A stretch of 49,020 nt of DNA, filler included, from Jimgerdemannia flammicorona (GCA_003990765.1; 2 parts of 2 records of this genome joined end to end with filler, not necessarily neighbours in it), one strand, 5' to 3'. Positions 12,914-49,020 are shown, counted from the first letter of the whole stretch. Notes: generated by a model not told the origin, from the sequence alone. Made by a program: numbers and translations.

Positions 12914-12950
<37 letters not shown>

Positions 12951-21390: not shown

Positions 21391-21391
<1 letters not shown>

Positions 21392-21423: not shown

Positions 21424-21426
<3 letters not shown>

Positions 21427-22430
21427 ACTTGTTTGAGTTGGAAATTCGGAAAATAATGGCTAAGGACTCGTAGATTAGCTAAAGTTGGGTGGCATGTCGC
21501 TTGAATTGTTTATTGCGTGAATGACGCACCAGTAGTGTTTGCTAATAATGGTCGAATTTCATCTCTCTTTGTCCTGACAGGCCCAATTGTCTCTCATCGT
21601 CGGCTGTTGGTACTATATTTCCAAGAAATGCTATGCCAAGATCCACCTTTCCGTTGGTTAGGTCAGTAGCTATTGTTCTGGAATGGCAGGGAGTCAAGGC
21701 TGGACTGGGATTTTCAGTCTTGTTTTGTGGCGATCGTTATACAAATGAAGGCTTGGTTTGTCTTGTGTAGTTCTCAATAACTCGATATTTCTTATTGACA
21801 TCATTTTCTATATGATTACATGAGAGTTAAGATGGCCAAGGCAATTTAGGCCGCCTACGCTCAGAACGACCCTGATGACGAAGGATCGTGTGTCACGCCT
21901 GACCACGTGCACGTCACCGGAAAGGATGGCAAAACGGTGCGCACATGTGGCATACCGAGGACGAACAACCGGGCGAGGGCATTGCGGGACCAATGAAGGC
22001 TGCGGGCAAGCACGGAGAAGGAGAAAACCATCTTCTTTATAACGGGTCGTCGAAAAAGAGAGACGTCGCGCCACTGAAAAAGGTATGTGTATATGCCACG
22101 TTGCATGGATTGTAGGTGCGGCGTATTGTATAGCGCAGGTTGTGGTTCATAGGTAGCCGTTGTCTATTAGATGCATGACATAGTTATCGAGGTTGTGGGG
22201 TCCCTTTTGAACGATTCGATGCGGTCAAGTCTTGGGTAGACCTATGCGTCAAACAAATGACGTGCGTGTGCAATGGATAACTGAAGAAAATCCAACCACT
22301 TGAAGTGTACGTATATATACATATCCCTCCTTCTCGCGATGAACACGTCAACCTCGAACAACGATAAATCGAAATGGTCGTACCCATACTAAAAGCACTC
22401 CCTCTCTCCCTCATTGATAGCATATACGTA

Positions 22431-22635
22431 CCTTCTTGCCAATAGTCTCGGCGACGGCGTAGACGGAGGCGACGGCGTAGACGGAGGCGACGGCGAAGAC
22501 GACGAACCAGATGACCAGAACCACTAACATTATCAATGAGGCAGGCTGGGGCGATGGGGATGAGCGGGCGAGGAATGGTAGCATTTGTCCTTTTTTAAGA
22601 GGAGGGAGTTCGGAGGTGGATGAAGGTGAGTGCAT
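22431..22635 (-). CDS. possible first exon of a secreted or membrane-anchored protein
   Basis: ORF with hydrophobic MLVVLVIWFVVFAVASVYAVASVYAVA ending at an AAG|GTACGT donor; contains an in-frame 18-bp tandem duplication. Downstream exons not resolved. Confidence 0.35.
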
Positions 22636-24462
22636 GTTTTGAACCGTGGATGATTGAAAATATATCCTGTATCGGCAAACTGAACATCGACCGCGCCCTC
22701 AGCGAGTAAGTTGATTGCCACCTCGAGGACGTACCATACATTCTCATCCACGTTCTCTTATTGACAGCTGCTCATTTTTATCAGTATACTATTTTTCATC
22801 TTTTAAAAATGATATCAATTCGGAAATAAATTTCTTCTATTATTATTATTAAAGGTTTATATTTGAGCTATTCAATAATAGTTTATATTACATATTTAAT
22901 TTAAATAATATTACTATACTAGAATATGAATACGAATAAATATTAAAAATATACATAATAAATAGATTAATTATAATTAAATATAAAAAATATCTATTTT
23001 GAAAATTTTCTTTCAGAGCTATCCCACCTTGATAAAGTGAGAGTTTGGAGAGTTTAAACTGATACTAATGTGAATGTGATTTAATGTTCCTTTCCTTTCT
23101 ATTGAATGACTAGGGTTGGCCGCCGATAAGAGAGTATCACGGCTTCTGATTTTGAAAGCGTCGGCTTAACAGCCTGACAAATGTGACGCACATGAGGCGA
23201 AATGACGAGAGCGAGGAAGACGCTTTTACTTAGCTGGTGGAAAGAGTAATTGGAAGTTTTCGATCAAGCCAGACAACTGTTGAGGGGTTTCAAGATTGTA
23301 TCACTGAGCTTTCTGTACGGGATCTACGATTGTGTGAAATAGCCATTGTCTCTCTACTATGCCATATTTAATTATGTGAAGTGTAACTTGCCGGGTTATT
23401 CAATTATTGGTATATTATCGTTGCTTGGGTGGTTTAGTATTAGGTTAAGCCATTGTACAAAGGATGGTCAGAGCACATCACGCTTCGTTCTTGGCAATAA
23501 TCCGTCATGAGTTAAATGATTAAATCTCGTAGAAATTCTTACGATATATTACCATCGTTCAACTGCAATATACATGACGAGCCCAGCATTCTTTCCAACG
23601 CCGTCGCCGTCATTGGTTGGATAACTCTGGCGTCATGCATGTGGCATTACGAATCGGCACCGTCTTTGGAGAGTCAGATTCCGGTAATCTGATTCCCGGG
23701 CTGAGATGAAGCTCGAAGTGAACGAATCGAGTTACACATGCCATCCAAGGATTCCTCTAGAGAACTGGGGAAGAATTTTCTGGAGGGGGGAAAGGAGTGG
23801 AAGTCGAGCATGGCCATTCTATTGTTTGGGAACTACAATTAGCCAAAGGAGATGAAATTGAAAAGTCGATGCGCTTTAAATATTCGTGCCTGATAATAGC
23901 TAACGAGGCCTTGAAATTGATGGTGGCCTCCTTAGATTCCGGCAGCCGTTCAGAATACCGGAGAGAACTAATCGATTCGGCAATCTGTGAAGTAGCAGGC
24001 CCATCCCTGTCAAGTATACCTATTAAATTCAAGAGACACAACCATGACCAATTCCCAGCCGTTGAGAATGACATCAGGAAGACCATATTTGTTAGGAGAT
24101 CTGACGGAGGATTTAACCTGTATCTATGTCAGAAATTGTTAATAAATCTTGCACGGTTTTGTTTGCTTGCGCTTATCTTTTCTTCCGAGGGGTGACAGCC
24201 GGGTATCAGTGAGCCACGTCTAAGAATGTCTTGCTATGACTTCTTTAATATGGGCATCGTTGTAACCTTGGACAGCCTGTTCGTCAACGAATGAATAGGG
24301 CTGAGTTATCACCAAGTAGCATACTATGGTGGGGTCTGATGCTCACCAACTAGTGTTGCATACCCCTCGGTATTTATACCGTGAATATAACCCCAGTTGT
24401 TGATTGGTGCAGGGAAACAAAGTAAGTAATTGTCACAACATTAAGCTCTTTTTTTTTGGGGG

Positions 24463-24562
24463 NNNNNNNNNNNNNNNNNNNNNNNNNNNNNNNNNNNNNN
24501 NNNNNNTTAATTAATTAANNNNNNNNNNNNNNNNNNNNNNNNNNNNNNNNNNNNNNNNNNNN
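24463..24562. other. artificial contig-joining spacer N44-TTAATTAATTAA-N44
   Basis: Symmetric N runs around a 12-mer with stop codons in all six frames; exactly 100 nt. Confidence 0.97.
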
Positions 24563-24588
24563 AAAAAAAAAAAAAAAAAAAAAAAAAA

Positions 24589-27500
24589 CTGAGGTGAATC
24601 TTCTGATGTCTGCAGTCTTGACTGTCAGGATGTCTCACATGGTTGCAATATCCCATTGCTTGAAAATGATGTTCCCAGCTGTTTATCTCTTGTTGTCTTG
24701 GGAATTGATACCCATCTTGATTATAAGTTGGGAGAAGGGTAGATAAGGGGTATATTTCTGTTCAGGTGAAGAAGCCTTGTCCTCTAAATTGACTTTGTAA
24801 CCTTATAGTAACTTCTTCAAAGGTGGTTGACTGTATAAGTATAGTTGGGGGTTCTGGTCTCTGGGGTCTCTGTCTTTCTTATTGGTCTAATAGATGATAC
24901 TGATAGCAGTAGTCTTGGGGAGAGTAGGGGACCATTTGGTGTAGACATCTTCCTAGCCAAAAAGCCTTCTCTTGTTGAGTTTCTTTCTTGGGGATAATGG
25001 TAATTGTACTGGGTCCTTCTTCAATATTCCAAGGATCATTGTCTTCAGGTGGTGTCTATTGAGGGTCATCCCAAGAGATGAGTTCAGAGACTTCTTCCTC
25101 ATCAGGTACTTCTTGTTCAGAAACCTCTTGGTCAGAAGTTCCTTCTTCCTCAGATGATTCTTGACCCCAAATTGCTTATACCTCTGCAGCTTCAGCTACA
25201 GGTGTTTCTGGAATATGGGTGTATTTTTTCTTCTTCTTTCTGCACTCTGGGCAGACTGTATCAGGCGATTTCCTTGTTCCTATAATCTTGGAGGAGTGCT
25301 CAGGACACTTGTACCTCTTGAGGCAGATAGGGCATCCTTTGGCTTCTCCTGCAATAGCTCTGATGGTAATAGAGATGGTGTCCTTGGCCTATACATTGTC
25401 TTCTGGTCTGTCATCTACCAGGTTAATTTGGGGATTGAGTCTGAGATCATTTCCATCTTCAGATTCCTCTTCCTCCTCTGTAGTAGATTCCTCACCACTG
25501 GCATATTCTTCCTGAATAGTGACCTTCTTCTTCTTTTTTGATTGCTCATAGCTAGTCACCTTGACTCTGTACTTCCTGCCTTGGTAGTCAAACTTGAGTA
25601 CTTGTTGACTGATATTAACAACTGCATTCATTTCCTTCATCCAGTTGGAGCCAAGAATCATATCATAGGTGACAGCTTCTGTAACAATAGCTTTTAGGAT
25701 GGAGAACTGAATGTGTCCAAGGGAGATAGTGATATTTCATACTTCTCCAAGGGGTTGAGTTTGGGCTCCATCTGCTACTATGATGCTGAGGTTGGATGGT
25801 CTATCAATGGGCCATTGGAGGGTATTCAGCAATTATTTCACAATAACACAGATAGCTGCTCCTGTGTCTATGAGGATCTTTGTCTTTTGTCCTTCAATAT
25901 CTCCATATAGGTAGGTATTGACATATCTTTCAGCTGCTTAGACAGAGATGGAAGCTGGTTCTTGCTGTGGGATTGGGATCTGGCCAGTGCTAGACCTAGT
26001 TGTTCTCAATAATTTGTTTCAAACTCCAGCTGGTATCAGTTGCAGAAACTGCAGGAGAGAGACTTTTAGCTTGGCTTCTTGAATCTTCTACCAAGCTTCA
26101 TTATAGATGTTACTAGGCATGATCTTCAGGGTGTACATCTTTCTTGGCTTTGGAGCAGTAGGTTCCCATTCTTCTTGTTCCATTTCTTTCTCTTCTGGTG
26201 GCAACTCATTCGTCTTGGGGACAAAAGGTGAGGGCCTTCAGGGAGGTATTTCTACCTACTCCTCTTCATGTTCTTCATTCTCCACTTGGATAATTCTTCT
26301 GCTGATGTTTCTGGATGGCCTTCCCATAGGTCTCTTTCTCTTCTCTGCTGGATAGACTGTTTTTCGGGTAGTGACCTTGGTAGGGTACATGTCAAAGTCA
26401 CTGTAGTCTTCACTGTTGCTTGCTTCCTCGAAATCTTCAACTGAATGAGCTTTAGACTTTTTGTATAGAGTATCATTCCTTTGGTTTGGTGATTCTGGAT
26501 CTCTTCAGTCACTCCTCTTATTGTCACATTCAGTGGCATAGTGTCCAAATTATCCATGGTAGAAGCATTGGATGTGGGCTCTATCTTGGACAGGGTACCT
26601 TCTTTCTTCTTGCTAGTAATTTCTGTTATCTCTTGATGGATAACCTTGGCTCCTCTGTAGTGGATATCCTCTTTTGTCTTGGTAGCCCTGATTTTCACAT
26701 GTAGTGAGATTTTCAATCTGTACAACCAATCAGTCTAACTTGGAGCTGAGGTCTTGGATTTCACTTCTGTCTTTCTCTCCTTCCTTGGCTGGTCTTCTCT
26801 CTTCAGATCTTTCTTATTATGATCACTCTAAGTAGTTCCTTGTCTGACATTGAAGAATCCTTGGTCTGCATCTACTTGCTCTTCAGATCTTCTGATGTCT
26901 AGGGTTTGAACATGCTGGGCAATGTTTAGAGAAATTCCATTCATGAAGGTCATTAGACCTATAATGTCCTGGTTGGTGGCATTGAACCTGGCAGTATGCA
27001 TTCTCTTCTGGATTCTTGTGAAGAAAGCTCTGAGTAATTCTTCAAGATTCATCTTCATCCTCATAATGGACTCCTGGGCCTTATGGCAAGTTTCATTTCC
27101 TGTATACTTTTCAATGAGCCAGTGGACCATGGCCTCATATTCTAGCTCATATGACATTGCTACTTATATCTGTCTTGCCAGTTCAGAATCTGAGTTGTTT
27201 GCTATTTGGTGGAAAATTCCTCTGACTGGTTCTCTGAGCTGAGTCTTGTAGATGGTGATTTTTCTTTCATCTGAGAGATTTCTCAAGGCTGCAATTCCTT
27301 CAATTCCATCAAGGAATTCTCTGACGTCTTCCTCCAGATATCTTCCAAAGGTTGGTAATGAGGTGGCTATTTCATCATCACTTTCTTCTAATTCTGGTTC
27401 AGGTTCAGATTGTGATTCTGATTCACTTTCTGAACTGTCACTGGAAATGAGAGTGCTTGGGTATCTTGAGGATGGTGTTCTAGATCTTGGGCAAAGTGGA

Positions 27501-28345
27501 ATAAGCCTAGGTATTCTTATAGGAGCTACTTCTAATTCTATAAGGGGTTGTGGTATGGGTTCTATTGGTGAAATTGATAGGATTGGTACAGGATGTCTGG
27601 CTGTAAAGTCTCAGGTTTATGTGATAAGATCTTCTAGTTGTTGTGCAAGTTCTGTGAAATCTCTAGTGGGGCTGCCTATATTGTCTGGTTGATCTAGTTG
27701 GGGATTTTGAGCTGTACTGCCTTCTGGTTCTGATTGGGATCCTTCTGATGCTGGATAGTTGGCAAGTCTTGATATAATTACTTCTCTTCCTGTCCAGATG
27801 CTGGTGATAACTGGTTCTCCTATAGTGGCAGTAGTTAGTGTTATATCAAATGTATCCAGTTTGACTGTTGGTTCTTGTGAGCTGAAAAGTCATGTCAATT
27901 TTGAAATCTTCCCAGTTGAGCCCCCAAATGTAACATACTAGCTCAATGGAGGCCAATTACAAGGTTGGGGGTTGGTGTTATTAGGCTTGAACCCCCAGTT
28001 ACTTTGTTAAAAAGCAACAAAATATTCCATGATTTCTGGGGTCCTTGGTGTTTAGTGGTATAATTGTCAAGATGGATATCTGTGAGCAGTTTGTATATCG
28101 ATTTCCTAATTGGGACAGTTCTTTGGGTGTAGCAGTGATTCATGTGTGAATAGGTTTTCTTCTTGAGTCAACTGGGAATGCCACAATTTTGTGTAGCATG
28201 ATGATCTTGGTGCATGACAGTCTGGCAATTTGGTGGTTCTTCTTATGTGATTTCTGCATGATGATCTTGTATAGTACAACTGAGTTCCTTATGTGGGATG
28301 ATCTGATAATTATAGTGGTTTTCCTTATGCAGTTTCTGTGTGATT
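24589..28345 (-). mobile_element. Ty3/gypsy LTR retrotransposon copy A: partial 5' LTR, PBS, gag, protease, Cys/His-rich spacer (cut at contig edge)
   Basis: LTR end TGTTACA at 27929; PBS 27910-27926; zinc-knuckle relic CFYHG*FGHYATEC (~26530-26575); protease LIDTGAAICV (~25860) and YDMILGSNW; colinear with 30480-34250 at an offset of ~5.9 kb. Confidence 0.9.
27910..27926 (-). promoter_or_regulatory. tRNA-Pro primer-binding site of Ty3 copy A
   Basis: TGGGGGCTCAACTGGGA two nt after the LTR end; matches the Pro PBS pattern TGGGGGCTCG.CCGGGA after CpG decay. Confidence 0.8.
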
Positions 28346-29743
28346 CTTGAGTTCTTTGAAGGCTTTCCTATGTGATTCTGTCTATTTGTAAGGTACTCCT
28401 TTCTTGAGAAGAACTTGGATTAGGGCAGCAATTTGGGCAAAGTCCTTAATAAACCTTCTGTAGTATGATACTAGTATCAGGAATGATAGTGTTTCCTTCA
28501 GAGTCTTGGGTATCAGCCAATTGTTGATCTTCTCAGTTTTCTTTGGGTCTGTGTAGGTTCTTTCTTTGGAATCTATAAATTTAAGGAATTCAGGTTTCTG
28601 TTCCCCAAAGTAGTATTTTTTTGCATTCAGTCTCAAGTGGTTCTTGTGGGTGAGCTTGAAGAATTCCTCTAGGTGGTGCAGGTGTTCTTCGAAATTTGCT
28701 GAATAGATGTTGGAATCATCCATATATACAATTAGAAAGTGGTGGATCAAGGGGGCCTAGACTGAATTCATCATCCTCTGGAAGGTGGGGGGTGTATTGC
28801 AAAATCTAAAAGGCATTTGGAGGTATTCAAACAATTTTCCTAGAGTAAGGAAGGCTGTCTTCTGAATGGCTTTGAGGTCTATAGGGATCTTATGGAATCC
28901 TGTGAAAGATCCATACTGCTGAAGTATCTGGTATCTTATAGCTAATCCAAAAGGTCATCAATTCTAGGCAAAGGATAGACATCCTTTTCAGTGACTGAAT
29001 TGAGTTTTCTGTAATATACACAGAGTCTCCATCCTCCTTTCTTTGGTACAATAAGTATAGGACTGGCCCAAGGGCAGATAGAGGATTGGATGACTCTATT
29101 GTCTAAGAGTTCCTGAATGTGCTCCTTTTCGAATATTTTTAGGTGATGGGGTATTCTATAGGGTTTCTGCTGGATGGGTGTTGCATTTCCTGAATTTATA
29201 CTGTGGTGATATGATGGATTGTATGGCAGGTTGCCATAATCAGTAGTGAAGATATCTTGATATTAGTTGAGAAGTCCTACAATTTGTTGCTATTGTTGAG
29301 GTGTCAAATCTTCTCCAATATTGGTAGAAGGCTTCACTGTCTTCTGGGTCACTGAGGGGCCTTTCATTTCTTCTGGGACCTTTTGCCATTTCCCAATAGG
29401 TTTAGTACATAAACTTCTCTATGATTTCGGTTGAGAAAGGATACCAGGTATCCTATGATGGTTCCTTTTGGCAAGATGATGGTTTCCCTACTTTGGTTGG
29501 TTGCTCAGAAGTGCACTGGGTTCATCTTGTCAGAGAATGTGTGTCCCTCTATGTCCAGGTGTGGGATATCTTCCTTGGGTTCAAAGAAAAGATTTCTGGA
29601 GTCAGGTGGTGTAAAGATTTCGAAGGTGGTTTGTTCTCCAGGCTCCAGGATGAGGTTCTTGTGCAGTTTGACTGGTGGGCAGTACACTTGCTGGAGAGCA
29701 TTTCTCTTAAGGTGGTTGCTTGAAGGAGATGTACTTCCTTTGT

Positions 29744-30150: not shown

Positions 30151-33100
30151 CAATATTCTTGCTGAGTTCAGGCTGTCCTTGGGCAGAGGCTCTACTAGCA
30201 GAGAGTCTCCAGGCTCTGAGGTTGAGGTTTGGCCATCTGGCTCTAGTAGAGGGGTCTTAGAGATAGTTGATTCCTCTTCTTCCTGTTGGGTCTAGGGCTT
30301 CCATGAAGTTGGTGGCATCTTCTAGCTATCCTTGGCAGGTTGCATGTCTGATAAGGGCTAGGATGTTTTCTCCTAAATTATAGATCTTAAGAGTCCTTCT
30401 TCCTGGCTTCTTGGTCTGGTTTTTCAGATCTGGCCTCTGTTGTCTCCTCTCTTCAAAGTATGGATAGCAACATCATGACTGATGATGTCTACAGTCTAGG
30501 CAGTCTGGGTGTCTGCCATAGTTGTAATATCCCATTGTTCTGAAATAGTGTTCCCAGTTATTGATTTCTTATTGTCTTAGAAGTCAGTACCCATCTTGGT
30601 CATAAGTTGGGAGAAGAGTAGACAAGGGGTATATTTCTGTTCAGGTGAAGAAGCCTTGTCCTCTAAATTGACTTTATAGTCTGGTGGTAACTTCTTGAAA
30701 GGTAGTTGACTGTACAAGTGTAGTTGGGGGTTCTGGTCTTTGGGGTCTCTATCTTTCTTGCTGGTCTAGTAGGTGGCACTAATAGCAGTAGTCTCAGAGA
30801 GAGTGGAAGACCATTTGGTGTAGACATCTTCCTAGCTGAAAATTCTTTTCTTGGTGAGTTTCTTTCTTAGAGATAATGGTGATTCCACTGGGTCCTTCTT
30901 CTATATTCCAAGGGTCATTGTCTTTAGGTAGTGTCCAACAAGGGTTATCCCAGGGAATGAATTCGGTGACCTCTTCTTCGTCTGGTGCTTCTTGTTTGGG
31001 AACCTCTTGGTTAGGAACTTCTTTTTCCTCAGATGATTCTTGACCCCAAATTGCTTGTACCTCTGCAGCTTTGGTTGCAGGTGTTTGTGGGATATGTCTG
31101 CATTTCTTCTTCTTCCTTCTACACTCAGGGTAGGCTGTGCCAGGCGAATTCCTTGTCCTAATAATCTTGGAGGAGTGCTCAGGTCACTTGTGTCTCTTGA
31201 GACAGATAGGGCATCCTTTGATTTCCCCTACAATGGCTCCAATGGTGATAGGGATGGTGTTCTTGGCCCATATATTGTCTTCTGGTCTGTCATCCACCAG
31301 ATTAATTCAGAGATTGAGTCTGGGATCATTTCCATCTTCAGATTCTTCCTCTTCTTCAGTGGTAGATTCTTTACTGCTGGTATATTTCTCCTGAATAGTG
31401 ACCTTCTTCTTCTTCTTTAATTACTCATAGCTAGTTATCTTAACTCTATACTTCTTGCCTCAGTAGTCAAACTTGAGTATCTGTTGACCAATTTCAACAA
31501 CTGCATTAATTTCCTTCATCTAGTTGATACCAAGGATTATGTCATAGGTGACAGCTTCAGTGACAACAGCTTTGGAGATGGAGATCTGAATGTGTCCCAG
31601 AGAAATAGTGATGTTTTGTACTTCTCCAAAGGGTTGAGTTTGGGCTCCATCTGTTACTATAATGCTGAGGTTGGATGGTCCATCAATGGGCCATTGGAGG
31701 GTGTCCAGGTACCATTTAGCTACTTCTGTGTCTATGAGGATTTTCGCCTTTTGTTCTCCAATATCTCCATATAAGTAGGTACTGACATATCTTTTAGCTA
31801 CTTAGACAGAGATGGAAACTAGTTCTTGCTGTGGGATTGGAACTTGGCCAGTACTATATCTGGTGGTTCTCAATAGTTTGTTTCAGACTCTAGCTGGTAT
31901 CTGTTGCAAGAATTGAAGGAGGGGGTCTTTCATCTTGGCCTCTTGAATCTTCTGCCAGGCTTCATTGTAGATATCTCTGGGCATGGACTTTGGGGCATAC
32001 TTCTTCTTGGGCTTTGGGGCAGTAGGTTCTCATACTTCTTGTTCCATTTCTTCATCTTCTGTTGCAAACTCATTTGTCTCAGGGACAAAAGGTGAGGGGG
32101 TTTGGGGAGATATTTCTACCTGCTTTTCTTCATGTTCTTTGTCTTCTTCTTGGATGATTCTTCTGCTGATATTCCTGGATGGCCTTCCTATAGAACTCTT
32201 CCTTTTCTCTGCTGGATAGACTGTTTTTCAAGTAGTAATCTTAGTAGGGTATAAGTCCAGGTCACTGTAGTCTTCACTGTTGCTTACTTCCTTGAAATCT
32301 TCAACAGGATGAGCTTCAGTCTTTTTGTACTGAGTGTCATTCCTTCAGTTTGATGATTCTGAGTCCCTTTGGTCACTTCTTTTGTTGTCGCATTCAGTGG
32401 TATAGTGTCTAAATTGTCCACAGTGGAAGCATTGGACTTGAGCTCTGTCTCAGACAGGGTATCTTCTTTCTTCTTGCTGGTAACTCCTGCTATCTCTGAG
32501 TAGATAACTTTGGCTCCTCTGTGGTGGGTATCCTCTGTTGTCTTGGTAACTATGATTTTTGCATATAGTGAGTTTTTCAATTTGTCCAACCAATTAGTCC
32601 AACTTGGAGCTGAGGTCTTGAATTTTACTTCTGTCCTTCTTTTCTTCTTTGGCTGGCTTTCTTTCTTCAGATCTCTCTTATCCTTGAAGGAGTCCTTGTA
32701 GGGTTTTGATCAGGATATCTTCTTTATCTTATTTCTTGTCATGATCACTCTAGATAGTTCCTTGTCTGACATCAAAGAGTCCTTGGGCTGCATCTACTTG
32801 TTCTTCAGACCTTCTGATGCCTAGAGTGTGGACATACTGGTCAATGTTCAGGGGAATTCCATTCATGAAGGTCATTGGACCTATGATGTCCTGATTGGTA
32901 GTATTGAACCTAGCAGCATGCATTCTCTTCTAGATTCTAGTAAAGAAGACTCTGGGTGATTCTCCAAGATTCATCTTTATCCCCATAATGGATTCTAAAG
33001 TCTTGTGGTGTGTTTTGTTTCCTGCATACTTTTTGATGAGCCAGTGGAACATGGCCACATATTCTAGCTCATAAGATATTGCTGCTTAGATTTGTCTTGC

Positions 33101-33832
33101 CAGTTCTGAATTTGGGTTATTTGCTGTTTGGTGGAAAATTCCTCTGGCTGGTTCTCTGAGATGAGTCTTATAGATGGTGACTTTTCTTTCATCTGAGAGA
33201 TTTCTCAGAGCTGCAATTCCTTCAATTTCATCAAGAAATTCTCTGGAGTATTCCTCTGGATATCTTGCAAAAGTTGGCAATGAGGTGGCCATTTCATTAT
33301 TACTTTCTTCTGATTCTGGTTCTGGTCCAGATTCTGATCCTAATTCACTTTCTAAGCTGTAACTAGAAATGGGGGTGCTTGGGTACTCTGATGATGCTGT
33401 TCTAGATCTTGGATAAAGTGGAATGAGTCTAGGTATTCTTGTAGGAGCTACTTCCAATTCTGTGAAGACTGGTAGTAAGGGTTTAATAGGTGAGATTAGT
33501 GGGACCTATATGGGATATCTGGCTGTAAGATCTCATACTTGTGTAATGAGGTCTTCTAGTCCTAGTACAAGTTCTTCAAGTTGTCTAGCAGGGCTATCTG
33601 TGTTGTCTGGTTGATCTGATTGGGGATTTCAGGGTATACTAGCTTCTGGTTCTAGTTGGAATCTTTCTGATACTGGGTAGTTGGCAAGTCTTGAGATGAT
33701 CACTTCTCTTCCTGTCCAGATGCTGGTAATAACTGGTTCTCCTATAGCAGCAGAAATTGGTGTTGTATCAAATATATCCAGTTTGACTGTAGGTTCTTGT
33801 GAGCTAAAACGTTATGTTGATTTTGAAAATCT

Positions 33833-33849
33833 TCCCAGTTGAGCCCCCA
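33833..33849 (-). promoter_or_regulatory. tRNA-Pro primer-binding site of Ty3 copy B
   Basis: Identical to the copy A PBS; next to the LTR end at 33852. Confidence 0.8.
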
Positions 33850-36499
33850 AATACAACATGCCTGAATCAATGGAGGAAAATTACAAGGTTGGGTGTTGAT
33901 GTAGTTTTGCTTAAGCCCTCATCTACTTTGTCAAAAAGTAATAAAATGTTCCAAGATTTCTGAGGTCCTTGGTGGTATTTAGTGGTACAATAGTCAAAGC
34001 TGGATATCTGCAAGTAATTTCCTTATTTGGATGGTTCTCTGGGTATAGTGGTGATTTGTATGTCTTTTCCTTCTTGGATCAATCTGGGAATTGGTAGAAT
34101 TTCATTTATAGCACAACCATCTCTGTATGGCATGGCAGGTTTCTTATGCAATTTCTGGGTTATGATCTTGTGTAGCATGACAATCTCCAAAAGTATGTGA
34201 TTTCTGATATAATGATCTTGTGTCCAAAAGTATGTAATTTCTGGCAGATAGCTTGATTTGGTGTGACTTCCCTGAAATGGTGGCTTGCTGGGAATTATAC
34301 TGGCAGCAGATTCCTTGCTGAAAATAAATGAATAACTTGGATGTCATGGATTCTTCCTGAATTGGTGGGCTTCTGGGAATAATAACCTGGGTGGAACAAA
34401 TTCACTGGGAATGTGAATAACTCGAAAATAGTGGATGATGTAAATTCTCCTAAATTGGCAGGCTTCTGGGAAATAACTCAGATAGTATGGATACTTCCTG
34501 AATTTGTAGCTTCAACTGGGAAACATGCTGGTGGCTTCTTGGAAAGAGTCTCTTGGCAAAGTTGTATTAAAGACTGGCTTCATTTGTATGAATGGGTCAC
34601 TGCAAAGTTATATCAGAAACTGGCTTGAGCAAGGCAGCTTTCTCTTAGGTGACAGAAACTTGGATTCTACAGGCTTATCTGACAAGCATACCAATAACAA
34701 TAATTCCAAAGGTGACAAAGTTCTTCACTTGAACTTGGCAGCAAAATCTTCAAGCTTTGTATCAGAAAGTAGACCAGAGGGGGAATAAGGAGACCAATGC
34801 TCAATCTTTAGAGGCTTCTTTGGTATGCACTTCAATTCAGACTGAGGTTTATTCACTCTTGTCTCTCAGATAATTTATACAAGTTGGTTGCTATCTAGTT
34901 ACTATGTTTCTAACTATAGATTTACTACTTATGGCAGATGTACAGAGTCTGTATGGATAAACAGACCCTATCTGATATGTCTGGCTAATTATAAGTGTAG
35001 TAAGCATGAGTAACTATGATATACTGGAAGTCATTCTAGGGCCCATATCATCTGGTTAAATATGCTAATTATTTATGTCATCTGGCTAAGTTATAATTTG
35101 GGTGATACATTTTGGTTTATTATATTATCTCAGAGATATTGTGTAAAACTACAAGTAAAACATAGTAATAAAAGAGTGTCCCAGCTCTCACAGAGTTCCC
35201 TTAGCTATTTTGAAAGCTTGGCAGTTTCTCTTCTTTCTTTTGACCCCTGAAACATTTTTTTTTTTCTGACTATAAACTATGAACAACTTCAACAGCTACA
35301 GCAACAGGCAGTCTTGACCAAATGGGCAGAGTTTATTTGATAGGTTACTGAAGCAGTTATCATCCACCTCTATCTTACTTTGCTGGATCTAGCTGTCATA
35401 ATTAAATGTGAATAATAGCAGGTCTTCAATTCTCTCTTCCTCTGATAGACTAGATATACCAGGAGCCTGGCTCCTAGACCTAACAAACAACTCAAGGATA
35501 TGGATGATGATGTCCCCACCAATAGTGATAGCAGTGATGAAGAATTCCTTACTACTGTGAGAACAAGAGCTATTGGCCATTTTACTATTCTGCCCACCTT
35601 TACTGATATTATTCCTACTAAATGTATCCATGTACACCTCACTCCCACCAGCCTCAGAAAGCTCATCTGCTGTAACCTGGAGCCCAAGGGTAGTGTCTTT
35701 CAAACTCTCTCTATCAATGAGGCATTCTTTTATAATTTCCCCAAAGCCACTTGGGATGCTGAGCATATCCTTGCTGACTCTTAATGTATAATCTACAATA
35801 TGCTCTACCCTGTTATCATCCTCCTTTATATCCTTAAGCTATAGAGTAATGGGGCCAATATTCACCAAGGCTTGATCTATGAAGCTATTATTGTCTCCAT
35901 AGTGGAAAAACTCCAAGATTCCCTCTGGATCAGATTCCACAAAGGTGAAAGCATCTTCATCTGCTGATATTGACCTTGCTAAGGCTGCTGGATAGTCTCT
36001 CACCCTCATCTTAACATGCTATACAGTCACCTCCAGTTCTGAGTATAATGGTGACCTCTTTGATACCAATTTTGTCCACCATTTTCATGACAATACCAAA
36101 TACCAGAAGCACCAACTTATATTCCAAACCTCCTCTAGCAAGCCCTCTACCCCCCAGAACAACTTCTCCTCTGCCTATGGCAAATTTATCTCCAGGAGCC
36201 AGGGCTGGAGAAACAGATCTCAGGGTGATCAATGCCCCAACTTCTGCCACTCTCAACAATTCTCTCCAAACTGCACTCCAAGTCAATAGAGTGGCTTCCA
36301 GAGTCAGACCCCAGGGCCAGACATGTTGACAACTGCCAACAATCTCTGAAGAATCTCTCTCTAAATCACTCACTGGTTCTGAAGGTATCCAATATCTCCA
36401 AAGTGTGTGCCCAACTGGCTCAAGTCTCCAAATCAGTTTGGCAGGCACTGGGTGTCAACTGCTGGACAAATAATATGACCTATGGTAAGATATATATTG

Positions 36500-39421: not shown

Positions 39422-39425
<4 letters not shown>
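38283..39425. repeat. unclassified CpG-depleted insertion inside the DIRS element, with an 82-bp-period direct duplication
   Basis: No DIRS motifs; GTACCCAACTGGAACTGAGAGCTGA at 38865 and 38947; followed by poly-A 39426-39483. Confidence 0.55.
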
Positions 39426-39484
<59 letters not shown>

Positions 39485-40640: not shown

Positions 40641-41254
40641 CTATCCCAAGGTTGCTAGTTCTTTCCAAGACCTCTTAGGTAAAGTCTTTAGTGTACAAGG
40701 TCCTCTGGTACAAGGCCACTATACCAGCCCAGTGCTATACTCATCTCCAATCTGTGAACAACTAATACTGAAACAGTCTGGAACTAAGCAACGCTTAGTC
40801 CTAGATATATGAGATACCATAGGTACTGGAGTCTGTTCCATACTTTGTGAGCTTAGGGAGAACTGTGAAGAGTTGATTTTCCACCCATCCTGACCCTTTT
40901 TATTTTCTTCCTTATGGGTTCTTCTTTCTTCCTTCTCCAGTGACTTCAGCCATCAGGTCTTTTTTCCTTACTTTTAATTTCAGGCTCAATGCTAATTTGT
41001 CTTAGCTAAGGGAACTCTGTAGAAGCCAGGACACTCTTTTATTACTATATTTTACTTCTAGTTTTACACAATATCTCATACATATATCTTAGACAGATAA
41101 ATTTACAGTTACATATAAAACCAATATATTTAAGATAAAATAAAGCATACTAATGCTTTCAGGATGATATAAACCAACTCTTCACAGTCCTCCCCAAGCT
41201 CACAACGTCTGGGACAGACTTCAGTGCCTATGGTGCCTTATCTATCTGGGATTA

Positions 41255-41603
41255 CAGTATATAGCTCAAAGGATACTAATTGAGGAGGAGTAAAGCTTTA
41301 TTGGGGGTTTGTTAATTTAGGATAGGATGGCCTGGGTCTATGGGGTTATTGAAGGGGCCAGAGCTATATGGGTAGATAGATAGCTAGTTTTTCTCAACTA
41401 AAAGAAGATATATAACTAAATGTAGAGAGTATAGTTAGATAGGATATTGAAGTATATTAGAATTCTTCCAGACTTTTAGCAGTCTTTGATCAGTCTATTG
41501 GAGGGGAGTAGAGTGGCTATCTAAGTTAATAGATACTGAGAGATATTATTCCCTTTGGGTAGAGAGGTGCTACAGAGTGACCCATTATCACCTACTCTCT
41601 ATA

Positions 41604-41607
<4 letters not shown>
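41255..41607 (+). mobile_element. L1/Tx1-like LINE RT fragment, related to the 273-2574 element
   Basis: EE*SFIGGLLI*DRMAWVYGVIEGARA...SLLEGSR...FPLGREVLQSDPLSPTLYIL (from GRGVRQGDPLSP); homologous to 280-560 (-). Confidence 0.8.
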
Positions 41608-41675
<68 letters not shown>

Positions 41676-43230
41676 GTCACTCAGACTCTTCCTTTATTAT
41701 ACCCATCTATTCCATATAAGTACAGTGAACCCACCCCTTACCCTATCCCCCTAGGGGGCCCCTCCCCCCTACCTCTTCTCAATGAAACACCACTCTATCA
41801 AATATAATTTCCACTCTCCCACCACTCTGTTTGCATATCCTTATTACCAAACCTCACTGTCACTCCCCTGAAGGACCCCAACCTATCCACCATCCAGTCA
41901 TCAGATCCCCCAGCAGCTCCTCCCACCTTAAGACCTTCTCCTACAGATATACCTACCACTCCTCCTCAAACACAAATAACCAATGGCCTGCCAATCCCAC
42001 TCAAACTGCTAATCCCCACTCAATAGTGAGCCAACTATCCCCCTCACCCACCAGCCTGTGCCCCACACCCAGCCTATCTCCTATTTTAACCCAAAATTCC
42101 CCCAAAACCTCACACTCTCCCAGCCAATGTTCTAGTGTCTGCACCAAACCCCCAGCTTGCCCAATATTGTAACATTCCTCACAATCGAAACAGCCACCAT
42201 CCACCAGATGCCCGAAATGGAAATTCAGCATGACATTTCACTGCAGCATTTGCCACCACACTACCCAGAACTTGGGGGGAAGCCACTGCCATACCTTAGC
42301 ACTCCAAGACCAGATACCCACCCAGTCTCACTCCTTGCCAATCCCAACTGCCTGCCAGCTGCTTGGCCAAAGATCCTGGCCAAGGTCCTGTTGACACTCC
42401 ACTCCATCCCCAATATCAAAAGCAGCAAGTGGAGCACCCCCCAGTAGCAATCTATCTCATTGCCACATACTAGGTCCCCACAACATCTCCCCCTCATTGC
42501 CTTGCCAGTGCAGACCAATTCTGTGTACTCCATCGACCACTCCCCACCAAAAGCCCTTAAATCTCAGCCTCTGAATTCCTTTGAGCCCCACCAAAGAGAG
42601 TAGGTCTCCCGAGGACCCTTGAGGAGAGGTTTGCATCTCCCACACCTTCTGCAACAGAGGCACCCAACCCCCACCTTGCAGTTCAGCTGCTCTCTTCAAC
42701 CACCAGGCTTGCAAGCAGTGTAACCTCTTAGGGAAATCTACAAGGCCAAGACCTCTCCTGACCACCAGTGTCGCAAGAGTATCCCAACTGATCTAGGACC
42801 TCTGCCCTGCCCAAATCCAATCCCTAGCTACTTTTGTCAGCCTCTTCACCACCCAAGCTGAGAAGTCAAGGTAGTAGGCCATATACCACAGCTTGGGGAA
42901 CCAGTACACATTCAGAATTGCTACCCATCCTGCTAGAGAGATATGGTGGCCTCCCCAATCTCGAAGGGCCTCCCCCCAGGCAGCCACCCTGCTCTCCCAC
43001 CACACTCATGGCAGGACAGAGCCATATATAGAGAGGAAGATGCCCAGATACTGTACCACCTCACCAGTAGGGACAATTGTTCCAATGATGTCGACACCTA
43101 CCAGCCTATTCCCCAAAACCATAGTCTCACACTTATGCCAGTTGAGCTTTGCCCCAGAGTGATCCTCATACTATTCCACTGCCTCCTTAATTGCCTTGAT
43201 ATCTGCCATAGACCCAAGGCCAACTGCACT
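41608..43230 (-). mobile_element. 3' part of an L1/Tx1-like LINE with poly-A tail
   Basis: Poly-T 41608-41672 on the + strand. Minus reading: SGAKLNWHKC, VQYLGIFL, ISLAGWVAILNVYWFPKLWY, RGLGLVDF, C-terminal C..C...TLEHWLGEC zinc motif. Confidence 0.88.
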
Positions 43231-43297
43231 ATATTCTCTCTTTGAAACTCTTGCTAGACTGAATTAGGTACAGGGTAGAGAGATTGATAGTACTAGT

Positions 43298-45363
43298 TGT
43301 AAGAGGGTTGCTTTTTAGGATAATCATTACATAGTTCTAGAAGGGTTTTCTTGAAGTTCTGGATGTTCTGGAAGACTGTTTTCTTATGGTCAAGAGCAAT
43401 TTCATATAGAGTACATCCTCTATGCTTATTGATTTCAAGATTGGGTTGATGTCTCAACCAAAGTCCTTTTTTGGACTAGTTCTGGATGTTTAGAATTTTC
43501 TGTATTTCAGGAAGTTCAAAAAACTAAAACCAGCTTAGTTGAATTGGCATGTCACTGCAGACAATACCAAATTAGGAAATTTCGTGATGGAGTTAGGAGT
43601 GGGACCTAATAGAGAGCAGATTTACTTTAGAGTGATTTGTGGGTTATTAAATAGGTTTATTCACTATTTATGATATTGTTATACTAGGAGTAGTTTGTAT
43701 GAAGGAATATTGTTAGAAAGTGCTCAGGGGTTGTGTTTGGATTGTTCAGGTCTGGGATTCTAAGGTCTGGGGGTGGGGGTATTTATACTAGTGAGGGGCT
43801 ATCTGGACTATGCTAGATATGGATGTAGTACTTAGTGCCTTGCTGAGTCGGAATGCAGTCATATAGTACAAGTGTGATCTGATATATCAAGAGATCATCT
43901 GACTGCTGAGTCAGTTCACAGTCATGTCATATGAGGCTAATCTAACTGTACTATGACTGCTAAGCTATTTATAGGTTTTAGATACTGTCTGGATAGTCCT
44001 CAATGACATTACTGTCAATGACATTATCTCTGATAAAGTAGTCATCTAGGAAGAGGGATTTGTGAATTACTTCTCCTTGTTCATTGAGATAATAATACAT
44101 TGAACCTTCATCATCATTCCACAGAATAGCATTGTCTGTCTCATATGCTGGATAAGGTATTGGGGGGCGAAGGAGTAGTGCATCATCTTCACTTTCATTA
44201 GATTCGCTGTCTGCATATCTTCTATAGATTATGGTACTATGAGTTATGGGGTTGTAGTAAGCTGGTGGCTGTGGTTCATGTTGCTCATATTCAGGTAGTG
44301 GGGTGGTTGATTCAATCTCAAGGGTTGTCTGGAGATACAGGTTGTGTTCTCTTATCTCTTCATTATAGTTGAAGTAATCAGGGGTGAATGTAGGTTGGTA
44401 TTTATGCCAGTGATCATTGTCTCAATAGGTCTTGTAGGTGGTTATGAACTGTTATAAGTTCATTGGCAAGGTTGGCAGGGTGATCAGGATTGACAGAGAT
44501 TCTTGGCTGGAGGTCATATTGGCATCAGAGAGATCATTGTCTTCTGCTTCATCTTCATCAAACCAGATATATTATAGATATTCTTCATAGCTTATCCAAC
44601 TTGAGGCATTTGCAGGATATAGTTGTCAGGGTGTGAGAAGGTTCTGTCTGTGGTCTGGACATACTTGAGATACTTATGATTGAGTTCTTATATCATGTCA
44701 TCAATTTGACCATAGGATAGGGTAGAAACCATTTCAGTAGTAGTAACTTAGAGGTGGAGAATAATGGTGCAATACTCATAGAAGAGTTCTCGATGTTTGT
44801 GGACAATGAGTTTCTGGTGTTGAGACATCTTGGTAATGTCTGTGTCATGGTAGTGTTTGACCATATCTTCTAGGAGGTGGCCGATCTGATAGTAGCTTGA
44901 GATTTGTCCGATTTGGTGGGCCTCACTAAGCATGTTCAGAGCATTCCATCATACTTCTACAAAGTAGAGGGGTACTCAACTATGGATATTCATGAGGGGC
45001 AGAGGGGGTGTGGCTCAATTGATAATGGCATTCCAAATATCAGCACGGATGTGGTTGTAGATCTCAGTGGTCATGTTTGTGTATATTCAGAAGTTATAGT
45101 TGTTATTTGTTTTGGTTCTCTGTTCAACACATCTTGGTGCTCAGTATATATGTATTTGGTTCTGATTGATAAGATTCTGTTTGTATAAATCTTGTGTTCT
45201 ATGACTTCATATTGACTCAGCTTTGTGTACTGTGACTTTGGTTTGACTCAGCTTCATGATCATACAGGTGATTTCCAGATTTGTTCAGAGGTCATATGTG
45301 ATTTCAGTGGCTTGTTTGGAGGGTGACATGTGATTTCTGTGGCTTGGAGGTTGTGTGCTTATA
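43298..45363 (-). repeat. putative 2.07-kb 3' LTR of the chromovirus
   Basis: Begins right after PPT AAGAAGGGGAGAGT (45377-45364) with TATAAG (TGTAAG with one G>A) and ends CTTACA at 43298; TATAAATA at 43787-43780; AATAAA downstream. No second LTR in the window to confirm. Confidence 0.6.
43978..45074 (-). pseudogene. extra ~365-codon ORF of unknown function downstream of pol, inside the putative LTR
   Basis: ATG 45074 MTTEIYNHIRADIWNAII...; the stops read are TGA/TAA that revert to CGA/CAA; one frameshift near 44630; acidic C-half ending DNVIDSNVIEDYPDSI* at 43978. Confidence 0.7.
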
Positions 45364-48300
45364 ACTCTCCCCTTCTTAGCTTTTGATGTCCTCATTGGGC
45401 CTTCTAATTTTATTCTAGTATTATTATACCATTTGGGAGATCAAATGTCTGCTAAAGTCCATTTTTCTCAGAAAGTGGCATATTCGTAGTATAGTTGCCT
45501 AATACATTGAGTTTATATGTTAAAGGGTTGTGTGTTCAATGCCATGTACTGGAAGTGATTCTGAAGTCATTCACTGCTGGAGAATTTCCTCTAAGGAATC
45601 TTCTTAATATCTATGCCTCATTTCCCATCAGGGGTACAGGGAGAATAGGCTTGCTTTCAGTTTTGTTATTTTTCCAGAAGGTCAATATTCTTTGTCTTGA
45701 CTTACTGAGTTCTTGATTTTTTACTCAAGATAATTATAATATTTGGGAGGGTAATATATAGTATATACTAATAGGTGTCGGATATTTGGTTTTAGTTATT
45801 TGAGGAATCATATTTCTGAACCAAGTCAGTAGTATTCTGGAGATTGGTCTTGGGTTCCTATGTTGCATTGTGGGTCAGGTAACCTTTCCATTTAACAAGA
45901 TACTTGGAGTGGTTCTTGTTATCATATTTGTTAAGAATTTGATCAACTTCATATTCTTCTTGGTCATTAATTATGACAGGTACAGGTGGTTCAGTGATCT
46001 GGTTTGGGAATAGCTTATCATTGTTTTTATTATATTGCTTGAGACATTGGACATTAAAGACTGGGTGAATCTTAATAGTGTCTGGTAGTACCAATTTGTA
46101 GGAAGTTGGAGAGACCTGAGCAATGACTTCAAATGGTCTAATGAACTTACTGTTCAGCTTTGTAGATGGTCTGTACTTGAGGTTGTCAACTTGGTATCCT
46201 CAGATATCCAGTAGGACTTTTTCTCTAATATTAAAGGTTTATTTTCACTGGTGTTGGTTAACATACTGTGACTGTTGTTCTTGAGCTTGCAATAAATTCT
46301 CAATTGTGATCTGGCTTAGATTATACATTCGGAGTAAGAATTCTTCAACAGCCTTAACTGTGGAGGTTCTTCAGTAGTTCAAATAAGTGATAAGGGGGTG
46401 TTTGGGTTTTGTCCAGTATTGGCGAAAAATGGGGTCATTCCAAGAGAGGTTTGCTTTCTGTTGTTTTAGACAAACTCGACTATGGTGAGGTGTTCATGCC
46501 AATTATCTTGTCTATAGGAAATGTAGTTCCTTAGCATTTGTTCCAGAGTTCAGTCCATTCTTTCAGTTTGGCCATCAGTTTCAGGGTGAAAGGCTGTAGA
46601 TAGTGCAAGTTTCATTCCAAGGTATCCATGGAGGGCTTTCCAAAAATGGCTGGTGAATTTCGGATTTCAGTCACTAACAATGATCCTAGGAAGGCCATGA
46701 TAGCAGAAGATGTTATCAAAGAAGAGAGTGGCTATGTCTGGTACTGTTGCAGTAGTGATAGTTGGCACAAAGTAAGCTTGTTTGCTGAGATAATCCATAA
46801 AGACAACAATTGCATCCTTCCTATTCTTGGTTCAGGGTAGTTGTACAATGAAGTCCATAGAGATTTGTTCCCAATTAGCAGATGGTACTGGGATAGGGTG
46901 GAGTAAGCCAGGTTTTGCTAGTGTTGAGGACTTGTTTCACTAGCATGTATTACAGGAAGTGATGTAGGTCTTGAGCTGATCTGCCATATAGGGCCAATAG
47001 AAGTTTTATGAGATAACTTCATAGCATTTGCAAATTCTAAATGTCCAGCTGTAGAGGCATCATGACATTCAAATAAGATAGCCTTTTGGAGATCTCGGTT
47101 GTTTGGAACATACAATCTGTCCTTATAGTAGATGGTATTATTCTTAAGTTGGTATTGGTTGTACTGGGTATGCTTGTCAGTATCATCATTGTTCAGGATT
47201 TCTTGGAGTGCTTGGGCTTCTTTATCATCAGCACATACTGTGATAATTTGTTCCATAATAGAGTTTGTAACCAGGGTGAGAGTTTGGATAACTTCTTCAA
47301 TTGGTGGTCTGGAGATTGCATTGGCAACAATGTTTTCCTTGCCAGGGTGATACTGGATTTCATAGTCAAAGTTGGTGAGAACTTTTATCCATCTGGCTTG
47401 CTTTCGAGAAAAGGTAGCCTGTATCTTGATATTGACTAATGACTTGTGGTCAGTCAATATGGTAAAGTGTGCTCCTTCTAGGTATGGTCGCCATTTGATC
47501 AGAGTGTCTATAATGGCTAGCATTTCCTTCTCATGAGTTGTATAGTTGATTTCAGCATCATTGAACTTGTGGGAATGATAGGCCACAGGGTGTCCTTCTT
47601 GTATAAGCACTGCTCCAAGAGCTAGATCAGAGGCATCAGTAGTGACTTCATATGGCAGGACAGGATTTGCTGCTTGAAGTACTGGAGTGGTTGTCAGGGC
47701 ATCCTTTAGTGCTTGAAAGGCAGTATCTTGCTTGGGTCCCCAATTTACAAGATTGTTGAAGTCTTTCTCTTGTTTCATGGTCCAGAGTTATTCTTCTTTC
47801 TTGCTGTGCTTGGTCATTTGAGTAAGGGCAGTAGCAATTTTGGCAAAGTTGGCAATAAATCACCTGTAATAGTTTGTGAATCCCAGGAATGACTGTAGGT
47901 CTTTCAGCTTCTTGGGTCTGGGCCAATCCTTGATTGCAGAGATTTTGCTGGGGTCTACTTTGATTCCATTGGGCATAACAATATATCTAAGGAATTGGAT
48001 TTCCTTCAGGAGGAATTCACACTAAGTTTTGCAAAGAGTCAGTTTTCTTGGAGTTTCAGTAGCACAAGTTCAAGGTGTTCAAGATGTTCCTCCAGTGTTT
48101 TGCTGAAGACTAGGATGTCATCAATGTAGATGATTACAAATTTGTCTAGGTATGGGTGCAGGATGGTGTTCATCAGTGTTTGGAAGGTTGCTGGAGCATT
48201 AGTTAAGCTAAAAGGCATAAACAGGAACTCAAAGTGTCCATATCGAGTTCAGAAAGCTGTCTTGTAGATGTCTTCTTCTTTCATAGCAATTTGCCAATAG

Positions 48301-49010
48301 CTATTTCACAGATCAAAAGAGCTCATGAATTGTGAGTTAGTGAGTCTATTGAATATCTCATTAATTTAAGGTAGTGGACAATAGTTCTTAATAGTCTGTT
48401 CATTGAGGTTATGGTAATCAATACACATTTGCAGGTCTCCTCCTTTCTTGACAACAAAGAGGACTAGTATGCCATAGAGTGATACACTGGATCTGATAAA
48501 TCCTTGTTCTAGAAGCTCATCAATTTCTTTCTTGAGTGTATCGATTTCTCTTGGTGACATATGGTAGATTGACTTGAAGGCTGGCTTGGCATCTGGGATA
48601 GTCTTGATACCATGGTCTACTTCTTATTTAGGAGATAGGCCTTTCGAAAGCTTCTTTGGAAATATGTCTCAGAATTTCAGAAGTAGTGGTCTGACATGAC
48701 TGTCAACTTTGAAAAAGTCTTCTTCAGAGTTCTCAGATTCTCCTTTGGATGGGCAGATGGAGAGAGCAAAGAGAAGGTATTTTTTGGCCAATTTCTTGAG
48801 TTATAACTTGTTGATACAGGTGATCTTTGGTCCAGGGTCACTAGGACTAAGTGGGTCCTTTTCGCCTTGCAGTTTGAAGTTGTGGCATCCTTTCTTGATG
48901 GTCAGAGAGTTGTTTACCCAATCAATCATAGGGTTCTCTTGTTGCAACCATAGAGTTCCAAAGATGATTTCATTATCTAGAAGTGGTACAATTTGGAGAG
49001 TAATATGTAC
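45364..49010 (-). mobile_element. degenerate chromovirus (Ty3/gypsy) pol: protease end, RT, RNase H, integrase, chromodomain; continues beyond the window
   Basis: [33 protein letters not shown] (~48120-48130); [62 protein letters not shown]...YLVKWKGY (45860-45960). Confidence 0.93.
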
Positions 49011-49020
49011 TTTTTTTTTT

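Follow-up and report, generated by a model that had tools for sequence, protein, structure and literature searches.

The window analysed here, a 49,020-nucleotide stretch of DNA from Jimgerdemannia flammicorona (GCA_003990765.1), holds towards its far end a dead copy of a chromovirus, and behind the pol gene of this element lies the same-strand relic of a protein gene of 365 codons. We read the ensemble as a dead, CpG-worn chromovirus copy with a 3′ long terminal repeat (LTR) of ∼2.07 kb (45363–43298) that carries a family-specific protein gene in its unique 3′ (U3) region, and we put the probability of this reading at about 0.6. The features that bear on it are given below; all coordinates of the element and of the open reading frame (ORF) refer to the minus strand.

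45795..49019, minus: decayed chromovirus pol, running from the end of the protease through reverse transcriptase, RNase H, integrase and SH3 domain to the chromodomain (Pfam; the window cuts its 5′ side)
45384..45794, minus: non-coding spacer of ∼410 nt from the pol stop to the polypurine tract (translation; its length differs among copies)
45364..45383, minus: polypurine tract (PPT), AAAAGCTAAGAAGGGGAGAG, and one T before the LTR; core AAGAAGGGGAGAG at 45377–45365 (sequence and 13-mer scan)
43298..45363, minus: putative 3′ LTR, 2,066 bp long, with T[G>A]TAAG at its start and CTTACA at its end (termini and order of signals)
45363–45358, minus: TATAAG, putative LTR start, directly 3′ of the PPT (sequence)
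45192..45345, minus: repeat region in the 5′ part of U3, with three ATCACATG-like units and a 31-bp tandem repeat (motif and repeat scan)
43978..45074, minus: relic of a 365-codon orphan gene (frame A 45074–44569, frame B 44568–43981, ATG 45074–45072, stop 43980–43978)
43844..43913, minus: TGACTCA (43913) and CGACTCA (43850), another two AP-1/Gcn4-like sites, which precede the main TATA box (motif scan)
43781..43787, minus: TATAAAT, presumed promoter of the genomic RNA, with the putative border of U3 and the repeat (R) region ∼25–30 nt downstream (motif)
43656..43661, minus: AATAAA, presumed polyadenylation signal and putative end of R (motif)
43298..43303, minus: CTTACA, presumed 3′ end of the LTR and inverted match to its start (sequence)

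The element is a dead chromovirus copy. Pfam finds domains of the Ty3/gypsy type in the decayed pol, namely reverse transcriptase (RVT_1, E = 5.1e-14) and RNase H (RT_RNaseH_2, E = 4.4e-33; RT_RNaseH, E = 3.7e-32), followed by the integrase SH3 domain (SH3_Tf2-1, E = 8.4e-16) and a C-terminal chromodomain (Chromo, E = 2.2e-6; 27.9 bits against a cut-off of 25.1). These domains confirm the chromovirus identity proposed in an earlier interpretation made from the DNA alone (the sequence-only reading), all of whose listed sequence features were also found in their places. A fragment of the integrase catalytic core (46667–46831) gave 0 Pfam families at E ≤ 0.01, the region being broken by stops. 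The chromodomain frame runs on past a TGA at a Trp position and, in translation, the pol frame ends at ∼45797. The gag gene and the 5′ LTR of the element fall beyond position 49020 of the window.

The gene and its relatives

The relic measures 1,097 nt, which is 365 codons and a stop once one base is added, and is interrupted by eight in-frame stops and one frameshift, a 1-base deletion near 44568–44570. Two proteins from metagenome contigs establish that the same-strand relic seen by the sequence-only reading is that of a genuine gene. The first, P0004 (247 amino acids, from a 998-bp ENA contig), was the sole match among 56 candidates when the C-terminal reading of the window ORF was searched with its stops as X; it is 58% identical to that reading (E = 5.8e-64), has an open frame and ends, as the window ORF does, in YPDSI and a stop. 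The second, P0005 (128 amino acids, from a 1,180-bp JGI contig), was the sole match among four candidates in the search with the N-terminal reading (104 of 128 residues identical, 81%; E = 8.6e-64) and is likewise open, beginning at the same Met as the window ORF (MTTEIYN). By a hand calculation in which the composition gives a stop probability of ∼0.058 per codon, frames of 247 and 128 codons would be open by chance with probabilities of ∼4e-7 and ∼5e-4, respectively. Judged by these alignments, the ORF is a real, family-conserved protein gene that is still open in two related copies with the same start codon and C-terminus.

The damage in the window copy can be read against these relatives. 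In a tblastn comparison, residues 1–55 of P0004 fall in frame A and residues 56–247 in frame B; because P0004 reads across the two frames, the frameshift near 44568–44570 is a defect of the window copy, and a contig version from another source (run X2, see below) has one base more than the window at this site. Opposite the eight stops the homologues have Arg (two TGA, one TAA), Gln (one TGA, two TAA), Tyr (one TAA) and Trp (one TGA), and most of these pairs are reachable by C>T or G>A. The stops are thus mostly explained by transitions, as the sequence-only reading had proposed. It could still be argued that there is no gene at all and that the frame is a chance near-ORF in an A-rich, non-coding LTR; the eight stops and the frameshift of the window copy would agree with this, as would the lack of a Pfam family and of a confident fold (see below). 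The argument is effectively refuted by the two homologues, which come from separate sources, are open over 247 and 128 codons and conserve start and end, and by the stop counts in 44000–44499, where the coding frame has two against eight and 26 in the other two frames.

Further versions of the ORF come from contigs of four sequencing runs (X1–X4) of four studies. The runs listed as matching the window are soil metagenomes, each sharing a small part of it (0.05–0.12) in short Logan contigs, and no RNA run is among them. Versions that retain CpG occur at loose ends of contigs at 44980 in X1 (three records), 44555 in X2 (three records) and 43978 in X3 (two records); a hand reading in the frame of the ORF yields APLYFVEAR, IYDIINFD and VIEDYPDSV. 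The X3 records link the end of the ORF to the downstream sequence, the putative U3, in other copies. P0004 and P0005 each form a singleton protein cluster. An alignment-based search for loci related to the ORF confirmed 0 of 316 pattern matches in metagenome contigs, 0 of 394 in viral contigs and 0 of 133 in genome contigs, and the same search with P0005 confirmed 0 of 92 pattern matches in metagenome contigs.

The decay follows the repeats. The ratio of observed to expected CpG is 0.01–0.11 in all repeat stretches of the window, compared with 1.0–1.16 in the genic 10–24.6 kb (10001–24600), and the boundaries are sharp; the 2,066-bp block keeps eight CpG. Between X1 and the window, 947 of the 1,121 kinds of change are transitions, and positions at which the window holds A/T and other copies hold G/C outnumber the reverse (575 versus 372 in X1). 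The decay is not classic repeat-induced point mutation (RIP) of the CpA type; it consists of a near-total loss of CpG that is limited to repeats. This points to repeat-targeted CpG hypermutation or loss, as expected from cytosine methylation of repeats.

Position of the gene relative to the 3′ LTR

The position of the PPT, a 6-nt terminal inverted match, the order of the signals and weak hints from contig abundance together make it probable that the ORF lies within the U3 of a 2,066-bp LTR. In the sense direction the ORF is placed wholly between the PPT (45377–45365) and the TATAAAT (43787) and AATAAA (43661) motifs. A scan of 45800–43200 gave seven purine-rich 13-mers at three sites, of which the PPT is the sole strong one; the two weaker sites (44361–44347 and 44082–44070) are inside the ORF and have no TG/TA…CA-type ends after them. 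A PPT must abut the 3′ LTR and, since plus-strand priming would occur at a PPT upstream of the ORF, the whole ORF would belong to U3, a position downstream of the only strong PPT that is unlike that of an env-like or ORF3 gene. The sequence of enhancer repeats, ORF, TATA box, AATAAA and terminus fits the order U3, R and unique 5′ (U5) region.

Promoter-like modules are found on both sides of the ORF. Upstream of it the unit ATCAC[AC]T[AG] occurs three times (45334, 45302 and 45272), the 31-bp tandem repeat (45192–45254; two copies, 81% matches) contains TGAGTCA twice (45250 and 45219), and an AT-rich TATA-like stretch lies ∼75 nt before the ATG; this region may be the ORF's own promoter or enhancer. 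It is hypervariable among copies, with eight joints or replacements of 31–87 nt within 45207–45348 across the runs and a varying number of repeats. Downstream of the ORF, TATAAAT is present at 43973 as well as at 43787, and the TGACTCA and CGACTCA sites at 43913 and 43850 are presumably comparable to the binding sites of AP-1/Gcn4 factors. Both modules, the one upstream of the ORF and the one upstream of the TATA box, carry TGASTCA sites. The motif is not enriched in the window (six sites against 9.5 expected from shuffles); three of the six sites lie inside the 2.07-kb block, two of them being copies within one tandem repeat.

The block is not private to this copy: the whole of it is covered by many diverged contigs in all four runs. 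This coverage, together with the X3 contigs that run from the ORF end into the putative U3 behind it, makes the block part of the repeat family. A nested insert private to the window copy was rejected on the same coverage. A tandem element, with LTR, primer-binding site (PBS) and gag following on, was also rejected, as no gag-like frame is found downstream of the block (48–58 stops in ∼866 codons in each of three frames). Contig depth is a hint only and cannot rank the parts of the element. Read in this way, the contig count in X1, among the rows listed, has a median of 20 in the block (18 rows) and nine on the pol side (17 rows), and depth steps up ∼5–10-fold across the PPT, from bin 45525–45759 to bin 45055–45289, in all four runs (142 to 777, 6 to 58, 12 to 110 and 0 to 33 in X1–X4). 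No contig among the rows listed crosses an LTR boundary. The stretch 43410–43644 is by far the deepest of the 7 kb compared in all four runs (2,445, 305, 280 and 203), and is either the most conserved part of the repeat (R/U5) or a stretch common to another abundant repeat.

Several observations weigh against a gene-bearing 2-kb LTR. The terminal inverted match is only 6 nt long and needs one assumed G>A, and a random match to CTTACA within 43229–43640 has an estimated chance of ∼10%. The spacer from the pol stop to the PPT is long (∼410 nt); joints that alter its length were seen in contigs of three runs (45383 to 45463, 45393 to 45463 and 45383 to 45927), as weak evidence with short sides of 21–35 letters. 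∼87 nt past AATAAA there is a TGG (43569–43567, the start of TGGTATTGTCTGCAGTG), at the place expected of a PBS behind a short U5; as a PBS it would shift the 3′ end of the LTR, not its start. The window contains no second copy of the ORF block and no 5′ LTR, PBS, gag or target-site duplication (TSD) of the element; a tRNA scan of the window gave 0 genes and Rfam gave 0 matches on its whole length. Depth in X1 is uneven, with 425–591 in the middle of the ORF, ∼350 in pol and 1,713–2,445 in 43410–43879, a pattern that would also be expected from a shorter LTR or from abundant variants of the LTR that lack the ORF. As to the gene itself, P0005 stops exactly at the TAA of the window (44690–44688, codon 129), where P0004 has Gln. 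In at least one subfamily, therefore, the gene seems to have been truncated to 128 codons, the N-domain, before the subfamily spread or was duplicated, and the premature stop shared by P0005 and the window suggests that the full-length protein is dispensable. Finally, identity to P0004 is only weakly patchy, the observed clustering being reached in 130 of 5,000 shuffles.

The depth profile raises the question of whether the ORF is instead a third gene (ORF3) of the internal region, lying behind pol and ahead of a shorter 3′ LTR of ∼400–700 bp, which would start after 43978 and hold only the TATA box, R and U5, the tract at 45377 being incidental or a second PPT. Depth is highest in 43410–44114 (975–2,445 in X1, and likewise in X2–X4), with the middle of the ORF near the level of pol; the LTRs of the fungal chromovirus crapaud are 339–443 bp long (PMC10787394), and extra internal ORFs are known from Retrosat2, as ORF0 (PMC3485330), and from bdelloid elements (PMC5408684). 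A shorter LTR would need its own PPT, and none was found: the 190 nt from the ORF stop to TATAAAT contain no purine run, and transitions, which can neither make nor erase purine runs, cannot have destroyed one. No TG…CA pair with an inverted match was seen in the same interval, whereas the strong PPT abuts T[A]TAAG, which matches CTTACA at the far end, and the step in depth falls just after this PPT (45055–45289 against the sequence just before it) in four of four runs, as a hint only. We regard an internal ORF3 as unlikely.

A different objection is that the ORF block is foreign, a captured fragment of a host gene or another repeat that came to lie behind the PPT in an ancestor and has no role. 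The protein has no relatives among retroelement or any other proteins, the premature stop common to P0005 suggests that the full protein can be dispensed with, and two separate promoter-like modules flank the ORF, as if a gene had been inserted into an older, shorter U3. The contigs tell against it: the block from the PPT to the terminus is covered by many diverged ones in every run, and the two X3 records at 43978 link the ORF end to downstream U3 in other copies. Moreover, the gene is open in two copies that differ from the window copy by 19–42%, and no host paralogue was found among 1.84 billion representative proteins. A foreign block seems to us still more doubtful than an internal ORF3, and a family gene within the U3 of a 2,066-bp LTR remains the preferred reading.

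Beyond CTTACA the original flank of the element is interrupted by the insertion of a retroposon.

43229..43297, minus: original flank of the element, 69 bp, of which the last 11 bp (43239–43229) are one TSD copy of the neighbouring retroposon (TSD match)
41599..43228, minus: 5′-truncated, poly(A)-tailed retroposon resembling a long interspersed nuclear element (LINE), with body 43228–41673, A-run 41672–41610 (63–64 nt) and second TSD copy 41609–41599

The TSD of this retroposon is an exact 11-bp match, AGAGAATATAG, at 43239–43229 and 41609–41599. The retroposon was inserted 69 bp beyond CTTACA and so fixes the original 3′ flank of the element, of which it is not a part. Its tail, its TSD and a long, nearly open frame resembling the C-terminal part of a non-LTR reverse transcriptase make it look LINE-like; Pfam gave no family on the retroposon or on 43229–43600 in three frames. 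Farther out in the same original flank is an 84-bp inverted repeat (40796–40879 and 41171–41254, 83% identical), which may be a foldback or resemble a miniature inverted-repeat transposable element (MITE).

Apart from this inverted repeat, the only repeat of note in the self-comparison of the window is a pair of 3.7-kb direct repeats (24604–28274 and 30483–34175, minus strand; 81% identical), which are unrelated to the ORF block. In each there are frames resembling the gag and protease of another Ty3/gypsy family, and a piece of reverse transcriptase (RVT_1, 28385–28756) separates the two, which have the look of neighbouring truncated copies and not of LTRs. Runs of A on the plus strand at 1–74 (74 nt), 24563–24588 (26 nt) and 39425–39483 (59 nt) are possibly the tails of other retroposons. 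An open frame of 521 codons (18995–20557, plus strand) has a signal-peptide-like start, one hydrophobic segment, a Ser/Thr/Pro-rich tail and no Pfam family, and is probably a host membrane protein; a gene of the major facilitator superfamily (MFS) with short-looking introns is present elsewhere in the window and, with the soil origin of the matching runs, points to a fungal host as likely.

The predicted protein and its possible role

The protein has no recognizable relatives beyond P0004 and P0005. Pfam searches with the N- and C-terminal readings of the window ORF gave 0 families at E ≤ 1, and those with P0004 and P0005 gave 0 families at E ≤ 10, so that neither Sag nor Nef, nor any further known accessory protein, was picked up as a homologue. 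A phmmer search with P0004 against the 1.84 billion representatives returned the query alone. The best E value for P0005 in a PDB sequence search was 1.1; the Atlas gave no usable match by features and TM-scores of ≤ 0.30 by structure. AlphaFold2 models P0005 as five helices with a predicted local distance difference test (pLDDT) score of 51.3, which is low confidence, and a Foldseek comparison of this model with the PDB reached no better than E = 0.9, for generic helical bundles, which is meaningless. The AlphaFold2 model of P0004 has a pLDDT of 31.5 and the Atlas model a pLDDT of 0.39, with no confident fold.

The composition of P0004 is more distinctive. It has a pI of 4.05, with 46 Asp/Glu residues against ten Lys/Arg, 36 Phe/Tyr/Trp among its 247 residues (15% aromatic) and no cysteine, and its last 47 residues have a net charge of −11; the only basic cluster, RKHR, is in P0005. 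The models and the composition together predict a helical N-terminal part of ∼160 residues and a very acidic, aromatic-rich and apparently disordered tail of ∼200 residues. Neither a transmembrane segment nor a signal peptide was found, the maximum 19-residue Kyte–Doolittle mean being 0.57 in P0005 and 0.97 in P0004, and the suggestion that the protein lacks both and is not env-like is upheld by these values (≤ 0.97). The proposals made for its short motifs fare less well. PPAY and LPEY, which had been taken as functional, are found in the window copy only: P0004, the sole homologue that covers the site, has PLAY and LSEY. Recruitment of a ubiquitin ligase via PPxY is unsupported, as these motifs are not conserved, and the anti-silencing role put forward in the sequence-only reading is likewise unsupported. 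YPDSI stands at the very C-terminus in both sequences that reach it, and one contig consensus has YPDSV (hand reading); a five-residue motif alone proves nothing.

What the protein might do for the element can be suggested only tentatively. Acidic activation domains are acidic tails studded with bulky hydrophobic residues, and P0004 has these hallmarks: its strongly negative charge is mixed with bulky hydrophobic and aromatic side chains along an apparently disordered chain (pLDDT 31.5). It is possible that the protein is an acidic, activator-like regulator that feeds back positively on the LTR promoters. That it is a passenger useless to the element is a somewhat more doubtful proposition, which gains from P0005 ending at the window TAA of codon 129. 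Each of three others we consider unlikely: an adaptor acting through short motifs such as the conserved C-terminal YPDSI, an anti-silencing factor, or something else. If functional, the protein would be a new kind of element-encoded factor.

A mechanism can be sketched on this basis. Both LTRs would receive a copy of the ORF, and solo LTRs would retain it. The ORF would be driven by its own promoter-like module, made up of the ATCACATG-like and TGAGTCA repeats and the AT-rich TATA-like stretch, and its transcript would end at the LTR's own AATAAA, making every LTR a self-contained expression unit; the ORF would additionally ride at the 3′ end of the genomic RNA. The LTR would then be a complete gene cassette, with enhancer and promoter, 365-codon gene, TATA box, R and poly(A) signal, and the 5′, 3′ and solo LTRs would each express the regulator. 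We offer this full scheme as a conjecture that we think has somewhat less than an even chance of being right.

By convention the LTRs of retrotransposons count as modules for promotion and termination that encode no protein, and to our knowledge the textbook cases of protein genes inside U3 come only from a few vertebrate retroviruses. If the reading is true, this would be the first protein gene located wholly in the U3 of a non-retroviral LTR retrotransposon, and accessory genes would have been gained at the 3′ end without any connection to the retroviral cases. Solo LTRs could then be coding units that serve the family in trans, and what passes for LTR length or 'U3 variability' could conceal genes that are lost from annotation through repeat masking.

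Comparison with known systems

Searches confined to open-access full texts turned up no account of a protein-coding ORF within the LTR of any fungal LTR retrotransposon. The nearest parallel is the sag gene of mouse mammary tumour virus (MMTV), a superantigen ORF inside the U3 of the LTR. As in MMTV, the ORF described here is in the sense orientation, is a few hundred codons long, begins only after the PPT and ends before the LTR promoter or R, so that it would be present in both LTRs. The two differ in that there is no sequence likeness, that Sag is a membrane glycoprotein whereas no hydrophobic segment is found here, and that the carrier is an env-less chromovirus and not a vertebrate retrovirus, with the gene read here from one putative 3′ LTR only. 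The nef gene of human and simian immunodeficiency viruses (HIV/SIV) and the tas/bet genes of foamy viruses are 3′ accessory genes that overlap U3, and foamy viruses also have an internal promoter. Our ORF resembles these as a 3′-terminal accessory gene that may have its own upstream promoter and may act back on the LTR; it differs from them in that they begin upstream of the PPT and merely overlap U3, and there is no homology.

Among retrotransposons, the rice elements Retrosat2, RIRE3 and RIRE8 have LTRs of >3 kb and an orphan ORF0 (PMC3485330). They share with the present element, as reconstructed here, unusually long LTRs and an extra, fast-evolving orphan ORF with no assigned role; in contrast, ORF0 is internal, upstream of gag-pol and not in the LTR, and these plant elements lack a chromodomain. 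The Podospora chromovirus crapaud is closer in kind; its LTRs are non-coding, at 339–443 bp, and G→A changes in the terminal TpG of LTR starts are reported in RIP-affected copies (PMC10787394). Both are fungal chromoviruses with variation concentrated in the 5′ half of U3 and a terminal TpG whose G may change to A by point-mutation decay; the LTR of the present element would be 2,066 bp long and contain a 365-codon gene. A last comparison is with the 5S sequences of Cassandra and the hammerheads of retrozymes, likewise functional units carried in an LTR, which are for this reason duplicated and persist where only a solo LTR remains. They belong to non-autonomous plant elements and are RNA genes or ribozymes, whereas the unit proposed here is a protein gene in an element of the autonomous type.

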